In this document: in pieces, positions 45,601-51,600 of the stretch
How positions within the stretch are numbered: the stretch's first letter is position 1
How the letters are laid out: the number at the start of each line of letters is the position of its first letter
NCBI GenBank assembly: GCA_964106915.2
Contig: OZ066916.1
DNA: 64,000 nucleotides
Strand: one strand, 5' to 3'
DNA from: Podarcis gaigeae
Taxonomy: Eukaryota
Notes under the pieces: model-generated
Databases searched by the model: none
What the model was told of the DNA's origin: nothing
The model's input: the letters and a program-made list of their open reading frames with translations, nothing else
Made by a program: the position numbers and the translations under genes

Positions 45601-48600
45601 GTTAGCACAAATCTTATCTATCACAGTGCAAAATATTTTAAATTTAAAAACTGCTAATCTATTTTAACTATGCATATAAGTCTCCCCTGCCGTATCTCTA
45701 AGGCTGAATCCATTTGTTCTCCCTTTGCTAACTTCGTTAAGTTTCACCAAATTCTGATTACTTTCAGGCAAAGAAACTTTCCCAACCATACCACCTTTGT
45801 GCATGCCTTAGGTATTTCCTTTTTTATTACCATTTCCCATTCCATTCCACTTTGATTCTTTTATAATCAATTTAAAAACATGGCATCTATTTTTTAACAG
45901 CCTGACCACAAGAATGCAATCCAATGACGCTCGGGCACATTTAAGCCACTTGATTATTCTCATCCCCTTTCCCTGAAAAGTGAATTCAACTGGGCTGAAA
46001 GGCCAGATTCTCAAAATAGCAGATGTTTAGGGGCCTCAACCAACTTTGTCACGGAAAAAACATTTACTTTGATTCTGGAAGATGCTAGTGGTTACTTTTT
46101 AAAAATACCACCTCCATATCTTTTCTTTCAAACTCCTTTCACCCTCCACTGCCACTTTATCTAATTGCCAGCTCCACCGCGACAGTTCCAAACTGTTTAC
46201 TGTCTAAATCCCCTTCCCCATACAAACTGGTTGCCCTTCCAAAATCATATGGCAAAACAGCTGTCCCTACAGATCCTGCCCATCTAAATATCCCTGTCTT
46301 TCAAGTCTCCTCCTCCACTGACAACAGGTCATCAGCACTCACTCCCATATCTGCATCCCCCACTGTTGGCTGTGGGTGATGGCAAACTGCATTCGTCACA
46401 CACTCTGGATTGATGTTGAATTAGGGAAGATTTGGCTTAGAGTCCATGCTTAGCAATGATGCTGACTGCATGTCCTTGGTCACGTCACTAACTCTGCTTA
46501 AACTACCTCACAAGATTACTGTGAGGATTAAATGTGATAATCCCATGCATGCCACTTTAAACTATTTAGCGAAAAGGCAAAATATAAATGAGAATGATAG
46601 ACAGAAAGAAACATTCGATACTTTCTGCTTCCTTTAATTCAGACTTATCTAGAGACAAATAAATTAGGAGAAAAGTAATATTATCTGCTGGGATTTCCTG
46701 TATTTACATGCTGCTCTCTTTGGTAGCGCTGCTCTGGTTTGCCAGAAGCAGCTTAGTCATGCTGGCCACATGACCCGGAAGCTGTCTACGGACAAACACC
46801 AGCTCCCTTGGCCAGTAAAGCGACATGAGCGCTGCAACCCCAGAGTTGTCCACGACTGGACTTACTGGTCAGGGATCCCTTTACCTTAACTCTTTGGTAG
46901 AGATATGGGCCATGTAATATTAACGACTGCATAGAACTGTGGAGGAAACAACAACAAACATCCCCGCCTCTTTTTGGATAGAGAAACTCATCCAACTCCA
47001 GGAATATTATAATAACATTAATATGCAACGTCATCCATCTAGCCAGAAGTTATAGTGCTTCTCACTCTTCCTCATATATATCTCCTATATCGGGGTACCA
47101 AACTATGGTCTGTGGACCACCACAGGTACAGGAGTTTTTTAAGGCAGGCTGTTTCTACAGTTATCATTGTTACTGTGGCTAATAGGTTCTAAAAGTGTAA
47201 AGATAAGCTATATAACTTGAATTTCATGACCTAATTTTTTTCCCTCTCCTTTTTCTTGTGATTGCACAAAATCAATGCACACAACCTCAATGACCATGTG
47301 AGGCCAACTATAGAAGGGTTCCTCAACTGCATCATAAAGCTTCTTTAAATTTTACAGTTTTATGTGAAAGCACACTCCACTTCAGGTCTCACTATTCCAA
47401 TCCACCAGTCATTAAAGACCCAGGGGAATAGAATGCATTTACTGTATACACACATGGTGATAAGAGAAAGACATCAACTGAGGGAAGGATGAGAATACAA
47501 TAGCAAATCAAAGTTTCTTTTCACTAAGTCCAAACATAAAAAACTATGCAAACAGCATATGAAGAAGTTGAATAAATCAGCTGTATTATTTTGTTTTTCA
47601 TGTTAATTTTAAGAATCTCAAAACTATAACATAACTGACCACTTTTATTTTGGTTCTTGCAATATATGTTTCTGTCTTAGCTCTGGCATGGGGAAGAAAT
47701 GAGGTAAAAGTAACTGATGCAGTCACCCAGCAGCTTTGAATTTCTAACCACTGCTGATACCATAGCAAATCACAGCATGTAGGAAGGGCATGATCTGCTC
47801 TCCATCACTATGCAATAGAGTTATTTGAGGCAACACAGCTGAACTTTAAGTAGAAGTCTGGCAAACATAAAGGAAAATATCAGCAGGAAATTATCTCTTA
47901 TATCAGCATTTATTTTCTCCTTTTGATAAATAACTTCATGTTTGTGGGCCTAAGCCCAGCAGGCTGGTGATGTGAGTGGTGATCTTATAATGATAGAAAT
48001 GATGACAAGACAATATTATGGGACTGAAATTGGCTGTAACTTTTTTTTATTACTGATGTAGTAGGCTATGGCATAGTCAGTGGGTATGCATCCTGAATCA
48101 ATCAACCCACCTGCTGATTGATTGCTCCTTCAGGGTCGATCCTGTGTCTCCCCATGACACAAATCAAATGGGGCGGTCCCACCAGGATGCCAGTAGGATG
48201 TTCTGTAGTCCGATAGCCCCCTGTGTGGACCACCAGACAGACTCTCCAGCACTTAGACTATGGATCCAACCCAATACCTATTTCTGCCATCTGAGTAAGC
48301 CCCTCCCTGCCAGCTTAACAACAAACCAATCACATCTGCAACCAAGCCCATAGGTCCCAGTAAATAGCCATCAGCCAGGCCTCATTGCCACTTGGTGATA
48401 AGTATACTCTGTCAGGCTGGTATAAGTCCAATTTATCAAATGTGTTGCCAGGGTGGCATGTGATATGACCACCCAACTGTGCTATGCAGGACATAGCTCA
48501 GTTAACTTTCTCCCATGACTGGCTGACATTTACAGGCAGTGCTGCACCTCACCAGTGGTGTTGCTCCAGGTTCTCAGACCAGAAGATGGTCAAACTAGGG

Positions 48601-51600
48601 TGTGTTGCCCACAGGGCAACGAGATCTGTGGTTCCTGCCAATATGAGGGTGATGCCCTTCCTATCAGCCACATCTTTTTCTCCGAGTTGTATCATGATGG
48701 CATCTGGCAGCCCAAGGAATTCTCTATTATATGAGCATTTCTTTTCTCCTTTTGATAAATAACTTCATGTTTACTGTAAACTCAAGGGACTGTATCAAAC
48801 TAAGTTCTATTCAGACTAGACCCATAGAAATGAATGGACCTAGGTTAGCCATGCCCATTAATTTTCATGGGTCTTCTCTGAGCATGACTAACATTTGATA
48901 CAACACAATATGATTTACATTGCTGAACACACATAAATTGACATGTTCACGGAAGATAAAAACAAAGTTAAACACTCCCCTTAGTGTTTTATGTTAGCTT
49001 GCTGAAAAAAATCCAAATTAGGGTCAAATAATATCACCTAAGGAAATTATGGGGATAATTATATTTCCAAAAAACACTGACCCAGTTTCACTTTTACTCG
49101 GTTACTTAGCCACCTCTAACACATGTAATGTAAGGAAAAGAAGACATCACTGAGACCTAAGAACATATAGATTGATACCAATATATTTTGTTTCAACCAA
49201 TAATGTAGAGGAAAAAGTAGAATACTTCAAATAGCATTTGTAGAATAAGGAAAAATCTGCATCACCTTTACAATTAATCCTTTGGAATCAACCATCCATA
49301 TCTTTTTTATGGCTTCCTTTTTCGGTGTCCCATCCTTTTCCATGGCCATAAGAATCAGATTGGCGATCCCCAGAGCTGCCTTAACAAGAAAAAGGAGAGG
49401 GAAAAAAATTAGGTCATGAAATTCAAGTTGTATAGCTTATCTTTACACTTTTAGAACCTATTAGCCACAGTAACAATGATAACTGTAGAAACAGCCTGCC
49501 TTAAAAAACTCCTGTACCTCTGGTGGTCCACAGACCACAGTTTGGTACCCCGATATAGGAGATATATATGAGGAAGAGTGAGAAGCAAACATGATGCCTG
49601 AATAATCCATATCTGTTAAATTTGAAACAACCGCTTACTGTTTCTCTGATTCTGTGTCCAATGAAAATGGCATCTCTGGAGACATGCTAGAAAGTTATCA
49701 TGTAAGTTATGACAGAAAGCTGGACTAGGCAAGAAGCATGTTTCTTCAAACAGATGTCCTAGAATAACTGTGACATGGCACCCAATGGACCTCCTCCCGC
49801 CACATTCTAAAAAAGTTATGTGCCATACAAGTAGCAGGCTCCAAAAATTCCAAAGGATGAATACAACATTAAAGATCACAAGTAGACATAAACAATATCT
49901 GACAACTCTGTTGAGTCATAAAAGCTCCCAGGCTACTCAATAAGACTGACATCTATCTATCTACATACATATAATGGTAAGGCTCAAAGGACAATAGCCA
50001 TTTAGTTTCCATCTTGCATACAGTTCTTGATCATCATAACAACAGCAGCAATAACAACAACAAATCTCAGATAGGGGAAAGGAAAAGCAGGACTGAGAAC
50101 TTCAGACAATATAGATATGCTTTTCAGTGCTCTAAACCTATATGAAGGTAACACTAGATTACCAATTGCTTTATGCCATGAAAAATATTTTTTTGTGTGG
50201 TGGTAGTCATTATTGTTTTTTACTAATTGACCTTGCATCTGGTTAATAAATTGATTCTTTTGGGTGATAGTCTTCAAATATTATGACGGGAAGGACTGAA
50301 GGTAACTGCAAGGGGATGTATTGTATGTGAATGTGAAGAAGAAAACTTAATAGACACAGTCTATAAATTTTAAACTGAAGTTATTTTCATACCAAAAAAT
50401 AATGATGATGATGGGGGGGGGGGTGAAGCGAGGGGGTTGAATGGGCAGCAAGGGCCAAATGCTTGTATCAGAGTTAATCTTTAACAAGGAAATGCTTCAA
50501 TGGAGCCTTTGGGTTCTATATACAGTGGTACCTCAGGTTAAGTACTTAATTCATTCCGGAGGTCTGTACTTAACCTGAAACTGTTCTTAACCTGAAGCAC
50601 CACTTTAGCTAATGGAGCCTCCTACTGCTGCCGCACCGCCGGAGCACGATTTCTGTTCTCATCCTGAAGCAAAGTGCTTAACCTGAAGCACTATTTCTGG
50701 GTTAGCAGAGTCTGTAACCTGAAACGTAACCCGTGGTATCACTGTACTAACTGGCCAGCTTATTTGTTTATTGTTATGCATCTGTTGTGCCTTTCTTTCA
50801 TCCTGGAAGGTGGTGTACATAGGGTTCCCACCCAGGCAAACCCCCATCCAGACACTCAGACCTGTTTAGCTTCAGGAATATAACTTTATTAGGTACTTTT
50901 AGCCTTAGTCAATAGTAAAGCTATATGTAAAGGTAAAGGACCCCTGGATGATTAAGTCCAGTCTAATTTGACTTTGGGGTGTGGCGCATATCTCACATTC
51001 AGGCTGAGGGAGCTGACATTTATCCACAGACAGCTTTCCGTGTCATGTGGCCAACATGACTGAACCACTTTTGGTGCAATGGGACACTGACGGAAGCCAG
51101 AGCGCATGGAAACACCATTTACCTTCCCGCTGCAGCAGTACTTATTTATCTGCTCGTGCTACCATGCTTTCAAACAGCTAGGCTGGCAGGAGCTGGGACA
51201 GACCAACGGGAGCTCACCCTGTCATGAAGACTCAAACTGCCGACCTTACGATCAGCAAGTCTGAGAGGCTCAATTGTTTAGACCACAGCACCACCTGCTA
51301 TATGTACCTTCACTTTTAAAAATAAGTTAAATAACAGGAAAAATAATAATTGGATAAATGGTGTATTACCTCGCCTGCTCCCTGGAACAGTATTGTGTGA
51401 TCTGACAGTTTGTTGCCAGTAATCCGTAGAGCAGCAAGAAGTCCTGCAACAGCCACTGATGCTGTTCCTGAAAAATAAAATGGAACTTACTTCATTAAAT
51501 TTAAAATTAACTTGTGTCATTGCTAATGATTACCAACAAGTACCCACCCCTTTGTGATTTTTAAAAATATAATCCTGTTCTTAATGGCTATGTTAACCTC

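Follow-up and report, generated by a model that had tools for sequence, protein, structure and literature searches.

A probably young inverted intron copy beside exon 9 of ME1 in Podarcis gaigeae, with a predicted effect on splicing

The ME1 locus and the inverted arms around exon 9

The sequence analysed here is a 64,000-nucleotide (nt) stretch of the genome of the lizard Podarcis gaigeae (contig OZ066916.1), which as a whole is called the window and in which all coordinates are counted from the first letter. The minus strand of the window encodes a malic enzyme gene that, judged by its sequence matches, is ME1, the cytosolic NADP-malic enzyme, and not ME2 or ME3. Two long inverted arms sit in the two introns that flank exon 9 of this gene: arm 2 at the end of intron 8, next to the exon, and arm 1 within intron 9 (Table 1).

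The arms are reverse complements of 204 nt each, identical at 201 of 204 positions and aligned without a gap, with the three substitutions at 47105/49538, 47123/49520 and 47213/49430. A BLAST comparison of the window with itself returned this pair as its top match (E 7e-98), in agreement with a first-pass annotation, made from the letters alone, that had described a 204-bp inverted duplication with three substitutions and no indel. The same annotation had placed one arm at the intron end before the exon, carrying a CTAAT motif and the pyrimidine tract and stopping 2 nt short of the AG, and this placement was also borne out: the source arm spans both CTAAT motifs and the tract down to intron position -5, and the tract is 95% pyrimidine at -25 to -4. 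Arm 1 starts 2,006 nt past the exon 9 donor in the direction of transcription, as expected from the antisense copy that had been reported about 2 kb downstream in the next intron. The spacing from arm to arm is 2,124 nt, which is also the loop length in the predicted RNA fold.

The identification of the gene draws on several comparisons. A lacertid ME1 protein searched against the organism's own genome gave 14 exon matches on C3, with the exon between the arms as the ninth; all 14 exons are present and the gene is intact. The best solved relatives, taken as the top PDB matches, are cytosolic NADP malic enzymes, and a query with exon 10 brought Podarcis and Zootoca NADP-malic enzyme proteins first among the database matches. 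The ME3-like and ME2-like paralogous exons were located on C8 and C23, and no comparable inverted bracket was found around them.

Exon 9 translates as AALG...DSKGLIVK and continues the GAGE end of exon 8, which confirms the earlier statement that an in-frame exon of phase 0/0 encodes the rest of GAGEAA and the DSKG loop that binds NADP. Loss of a helix and a strand from the nucleotide-binding fold would be expected to inactivate the enzyme, and ME1 without the residues encoded by exon 9 is probably inactive. Residues S346 and K347 set the NADP specificity of malic enzyme (PMC3183043).

Table 1. Features of the ME1 locus around exon 9, in window coordinates
Feature	Position	Strand	Remark
Arm 1, inverted copy in ME1 intron 9, likely the inserted one	47056..47259	+	Antisense to arm 2 in the pre-mRNA
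Arm 2, source sequence, positions -208 to -5 of ME1 intron 8	49384..49587	-	
ME1 exon 8, 98 nt, ends GAGE at 51370	51370..51467	-	Donor of any skipped product
ME1 exon 9 of 14, 114 nt, phase 0/0	49266..49379	-	Residues 315-352 in standard malic-enzyme numbering, including D345-S346-K347
ME1 exon 10, 106 nt, starts GRAS at 43370	43265..43370	-	Acceptor of any skipped product
3' splice-site AG of exon 9 (AAG context)	49380..49381	-	2 nt outside the predicted stem
Polypyrimidine tract of exon 9 acceptor	49384..49407	-	Inside the predicted stem
CTAAT branch-point-like motif	49408..49412	-	At -33 to -29; candidate branch point
Second CTAAT motif	49460..49464	-	At -85
GTG at left junction of arm 1	47055..47057	+	TG common to source flank
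GTG at right junction of arm 1	47258..47260	+	GT common to source; 6/9 bases match source onward
Remnant of ~50 nt resembling the end of a dispersed repeat, copied along with the arm	49499..49551	-	85-87% to three other places

Presence, origin and age of the inverted copy

Of 24 public runs listed, four DNA runs were examined, namely X1 and X2 (organism A, two studies), X4 (organism B) and X7 (organism E). None of the 24 is on record as RNA, and eight that are presumably RNA belong to organisms F, H and I, with shares of 0.00-0.24, which is no measure of expression. The distribution given here covers three species (A, B and E) among the organisms A to I; the assembly itself may derive from X1 or from X2, but not from both. 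Contigs from X1, X2 and X4 cross both junctions of arm 1, and each of these runs also yields one collapsed arm contig, with a depth relative to its flanks of 1.55, 1.61 and 1.62, respectively. Two homozygous arms with the known differences are expected to give 1.54, 1.54 and 1.61, and a heterozygote 1.27 (for a 204-nt contig). The three carrier samples, from the two species A and B, carry both arms at homozygous depth, and no empty-site joint was found in X1, X2 or X4. In X7, one contig joins 47054 to 47258 and skips 203 nt, with three ambiguous letters, and a long contig of the ordinary kind contains arm 2, for which each of the four runs gives coverage. Organism E has an empty site, 203 nt shorter than the filled allele.

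The first-pass annotation had allowed that arm 1 might be missing from the raw reads, as an artefact, or prove to be a high-copy transposon. Arm 1 is present in three of the four public runs, and the recovery of both of its junctions in three independent runs excludes an assembly artefact. A search of the organism's own genome with the whole arm gave two full copies plus three matches of 46-54 nt at 85-87% identity, these copy numbers being lower bounds, and the arm had no match in the 120 genome tiles checked. Its ends are plain intron sequence without terminal inverted repeats or a tail, and only GTG is repeated. A short interspersed element (SINE), a miniature inverted-repeat transposable element or a fragment of a long interspersed element is excluded by these results, and the description of the arm as a non-transposon copy held. 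Of the terminal repeats, tail and target-site duplication whose absence had been claimed, the first two are indeed absent, whereas GTG stands on both sides of the copy as a 3-nt duplication. We see next to no chance that the arms are artefactual or that a common transposon inserted twice, even though a 50-nt portion of the arm resembles a dispersed repeat and all 36 long inverted pairs (at least 100 bp, at least 85% identical) in sampled genome tiles are derived from repeats. An inversion of the segment between the arms at a staggered break was also excluded, as exon 9 and the intron after it keep the order and orientation of the remaining gene and match X7 in this.

The junctions point to the way in which the copy was made. 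The net insertion relative to the empty site measures 203 nt. In the filled allele a copied core of 200 nt is flanked by GTG at either end; the target trinucleotide GTG is doubled, and this 3-nt duplication amounts to two 2-nt microhomologies, although junction matches of 2 nt are also frequent by chance. MMBIR-type templated insertions (MMB-TI) have as their signature an inverted copy of a template close by, two junctions with microhomology or microhomeology, and a return to the original position (PMC8421209). The lizard copy resembles these in its inverted nearby template, its junction microhomology, its return to position and its persistence as a germline variant, and it differs in scale, since the described events are short and were searched for within 100 bp of their template while here 200 nt were copied from ~2.1 kb away. 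The copy likely arose by one microhomology-mediated template switch, as a scar of DNA repair. Because microhomology lies at the ends of the copy, the arm's stopping 2 nt short of the AG is explained without design.

We infer that arm 1 was inserted and not lost in organism E, a polarity that rests on one non-carrier species. The opposite polarity, that of an older duplication from which a deletion between the two GTG trinucleotides removed arm 1 in organism E, has in our view only a slight chance of being correct. A deletion through a 3-nt microhomology would yield an identical empty site, and the arm divergence in organism B (probably 7/204) is greater than the distance between the window and E. 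Such a loss, however, demands deletion of exactly the duplicated stretch, and the arm divergence in the window equals the distance to E and is no greater.

The age of the copy was judged from the same runs. With SINE pieces and collapsed arm contigs excluded from the counts, the flanks diverge from the window by 3/3536 in X1, 6/3542 in X2, 34/3644 in organism B and 54/3635 (1.49%) in organism E. The divergence between the arms, 3/204 (1.5%), equals that between the window and X7; had the copy arisen near the split from E, 3.0 arm differences would be expected, and three are seen. The copy is young and likely arose after the split of the carriers from their close relative E, and the youth ascribed to it from the letters alone held in this comparison.

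Organism B (X4) has four further arm differences, at 47237, 47242 and 47243 in arm 1 and at 49402 in arm 2. These correspond to intron positions -27 to -21, within 7 nt, and all of them break pairs, while the tract stays pyrimidine. Four or more extra differences are unremarkable in number (P about 0.13), and their clustering has a P of 0.03 to 0.001, depending on the number of events that they represent; the cluster was noticed post hoc, lies at a homopolymer edge and is read from single contigs with a depth of 12-14. It could reflect slippage at the T/C run or an escape from masking, and is taken as a lead only. With three arm differences in the window and probably seven in B, against about three expected, the arms change at about the neutral rate. 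Neither compensatory changes nor pairing kept across species were seen, in a comparison of low power in which all four extra differences of B are pair-breaking.

Over 471 positions of ME1, private amino-acid changes number one in the window, four in P. muralis, two in P. raffonei (one of which is an alignment-edge artefact) and 11 in Zootoca. With only one private change the full-length enzyme is still conserved in the carrier, and this comparison gave no sign of relaxed selection. The copy is likely tolerated rather than selected. Two coding differences in exon 9 were observed along the way: the window has a private Glu-to-Asp change, and run X4 differs at position 49309, Ile to Thr by codon reading, where platypus also has Thr.

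In order to judge how unusual such a pair is, 160 evenly spaced 10-kb tiles (1.6 Mb) from five contigs were surveyed. The 36 inverted pairs mentioned above came from 28 of these tiles; six reached 95% identity, and no unique-sequence inverted pair was found in the 160 tiles. Long pairs able to form a duplex are common in this genome, and those of unique sequence are rare, with no more than a few per Mb. The pair in tile L082, which had counted as unique within the first 120 tiles, proved to be a repeat once all 160 were compared. It and a pair in L166 (L082:5143-6345 and L166:2132-7536) are near-perfect long inverted repeats (476 nt at 100%, and 1,283 nt in three copies, respectively) of low copy number, each matching two other tiles.

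Several other repeats lie in the window. Exon 9 also lies between two inverted copies of a SINE-like repeat of high copy number, presumably Sauria SINE, which form an older pair (46742-46890 and 50927-51074, 73% over 151 nt). Inside the loop, a 55-nt direct repeat (47889-47943 and 48718-48772, 93%) surrounds a GC-richer segment of ~775 nt, which is also covered in organisms B and E and may have been inserted long ago, with the repeat as its long target duplication. One ME1 intron holds a compound (TC)n(TG)n microsatellite in two inverted copies ~2 kb apart (36261-36331 and 38312-38383), and a palindrome at 4326-4529, with 90-nt arms (92%) and a 24-nt spacer, is likely a miniature transposon.

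The predicted duplex and splicing of exon 9

In the pre-mRNA the arms are predicted to pair over the branch-point-like motif and the pyrimidine tract. The predicted duplex of the transcribed strand reaches -372 kcal/mol at 37 °C and -487 kcal/mol at 15 °C, and in RNA one of the three arm differences becomes a G-U pair, leaving only two true mismatches. This fold supports the earlier proposal that a duplex of about 200 bp could form with the exon in its loop.

The proposed course is a kinetic one. Exon 9 and its splice sites would be transcribed ~2,000 nt ahead of arm 1, a head start of about half a minute to two minutes at an elongation rate of 1-4 kb per minute, and most transcripts would commit to inclusion first. 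The part of arm 1 that faces the tract is the first to be transcribed. Late transcripts would be captured by the duplex and would splice exon 8 to exon 10 in frame, and the product would be a protein without residues 315-352, probably inactive. That a template-switch copy causes partial, tolerated skipping of exon 9 in a minority of transcripts is a reading to which we give about an even chance.

Engineered and transposon-derived inverted repeats provide the analogy for this reading. In mouse Tbxt, a 220-bp inverted intron copy formed at a CRISPR cut (insRCS2) gave more skipped than full-length mRNA (PMC10901737), and from this strong skipping we would expect that partial skipping is likely here. 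Removal of one Alu arm reduced skipping in seven of eight minigenes, by about 1 to more than 40 points of percent spliced in (PMC13019944).

A number of points weigh against it. The loop of 2,124 nt is about twice that of Tbxt insRCS2 (~950 nt from coordinates). The exon 9 acceptor tract is the most pyrimidine-rich of the six ME1 acceptors listed, which favours early commitment to this exon. In addition, RefSeq isoform X2 of Sceloporus undulatus lacks exactly this exon: it joins GAGE to GRAS, as the only one of 43 retrieved proteins to do so, and differs from its own X1 by exactly 38 residues. As the copy is too young to be expected in Sceloporus, skipping of exon 9 may occur without arm 1, and any skipping in the carriers could be background. 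None of the seven retrieved lacertid ME1 models, be they from carriers of arm 1 or not, is without exon 9. As to the origin, the polarity of the insertion depends on organism E as the one non-carrier species, and the cited MMB-TIs were searched for only within 100 bp of the template. Separately, several lacertid models (P0001, P0002, P0044, P0046 and P0048; Podarcis RefSeq) skip other in-frame ME1 exons of ~50 or 58 residues, and low-level in-frame skipping seems common in ME1 annotation.

The same origin could have left a neutral scar that is functionally silent. U2AF/U2 and U1 would then commit exon 9 before arm 1 exists, and binding of heterogeneous nuclear ribonucleoproteins or ADAR editing would keep the stem off the tract; this is a serious possibility, which we place somewhat short of an even chance. 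The homozygous state of all three carrier samples in two species, the fully conserved protein, the neutral decay of the arms and the head start of 2,006 nt all fit it. The strand facing the tract is A at 17 of 27 positions, and editing would loosen exactly that part. HNRNPC opposes and competes with such inverted-repeat duplexes (PMC13019944), and mouse embryos into which an Alu pair had been inserted showed little skipping (PMC10901737). A silent scar is harder to reconcile with the clear skipping that near-perfect non-Alu pairs of 220 and 297 bp caused in mouse, all the more as those pairs are not described as covering splice signals, whereas the lizard arm does cover them (PMC10901737).

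Three parts of the first-pass interpretation lost ground. A single-exon circular RNA had been suggested as a second product; back-splicing needs an upstream branch point, and short exons circularise poorly (PMC4479058, on fission yeast data). With both CTAAT motifs and the tract inside the arm, the branch point and acceptor of exon 9 are not left free, and a single-exon circle is unlikely because the candidate branch point lies in the predicted stem and the exon, at 114 nt, is short. A dependence on temperature had also been proposed. A duplex of the predicted stability cannot melt between 37 and 15 °C, which excludes a thermal melting switch across the range of body temperatures and means that only kinetics could matter. 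A selected "switch", finally, is weakened by the near-neutral decay of the arms and by the Sceloporus model that is also without the exon.

A selected, regulated cis-antisense switch, in which a race between elongation and splicing, and with it body temperature or metabolic state, determines the share of inactive ME1, is in our estimate very improbable. In its favour, the copy outlasted a species split and is found at homozygous depth, and S346/K347 are encoded by this in-frame exon. Long-range duplexes can respond to the rate of elongation (PMC11802352), and the four extra differences of organism B, which face the tract within 7 nt, could be tuning. Against this stand the lack of any sign that pairing is being kept, copy ends that microhomology explains, a duplex unable to melt at body temperatures, and the case of ATE1, in which slower elongation was without effect when the partners were ~2 kb apart (PMC11802352). 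A bolder form, in which one repair accident made a transposon-free antisense copy that now sets the level of active ME1 through a race that temperature can shift, with the mismatches of B as the mark of retuning selection, we also consider very improbable. If it were true, nature would supply a series of three steps (carriers, B with its partly opened allele, non-carrier) on how far downstream an antisense arm can lie and still capture a splice site.

Comparison with known systems and meaning

The nearest likeness to the lizard copy is Tbxt insRCS2 (PMC10901737), which is also an inverted copy of neighbouring intron sequence, arose unplanned at a double-strand break, brackets one exon and forms a near-perfect stem of non-transposon sequence. 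The Tbxt alleles insRCS and insRCS2 are, however, laboratory alleles with demonstrated skipping and phenotype, and the insRCS2 loop is shorter. In contrast, the lizard copy is natural, occurs in two species and covers the acceptor signals down to -5, and its effect is only predicted. Inverted Alu pairs, including AluSx1-AluY of TBXT (PMC13019944), likewise arose when one lineage gained a second arm, which completed a long duplex with an exon inside it. Those pairs are derived from transposons, are ~77% identical in TBXT (228/297) and are depleted within ~100 bp of exons (bioRxiv 10.1101/2025.03.07.642063), whereas the lizard arm is unique sequence, 98.5% identical to its partner, and abuts the AG.

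As in F8 intron 15 and SF3B3, where a polypyrimidine tract or branch site is sequestered (PMC11802352), pairing would hide acceptor signals and weaken recognition of the exon. Those structures are short local folds with measured effects, in contrast to the predicted long-range helix of 204 bp, whose partner is made ~2 kb later. The Sceloporus undulatus NADP-dependent malic enzyme-like isoform X2 (XP_042299243.1) is alike in missing the same 38 residues; it comes from a distant lizard and is an automatic model, here compared by protein sequence only. In the literature covered, from which most subscription papers are missing, no published report was found of the locus, of transcripts that skip exon 9 of ME1, or of a duplication that is natural, free of repeats and placed over an acceptor.

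If the lizard copy acts at all, it works like the known inverted-repeat systems that loop out an exon, and it differs from them in being natural, of unique sequence and placed over acceptor signals. It is a real, young and probably tolerated scar, with an effect on splicing that is predicted from the arrangement of its arms. Alu pairs and engineered alleles have already shown that inverted repeats can drive skipping; an arm of natural origin and unique sequence that lies over the branch-point motif and tract of a conserved enzyme and has survived a species split is a harsher test. If skipping does not occur, a head start of 2 kb suffices to shield a splice site from a near-perfect antisense arm of 204 bp. 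If it does occur, a local repair scar can make a species-specific isoform in one step, and the carrier and non-carrier congeners offer a natural comparison for the effect on splicing.

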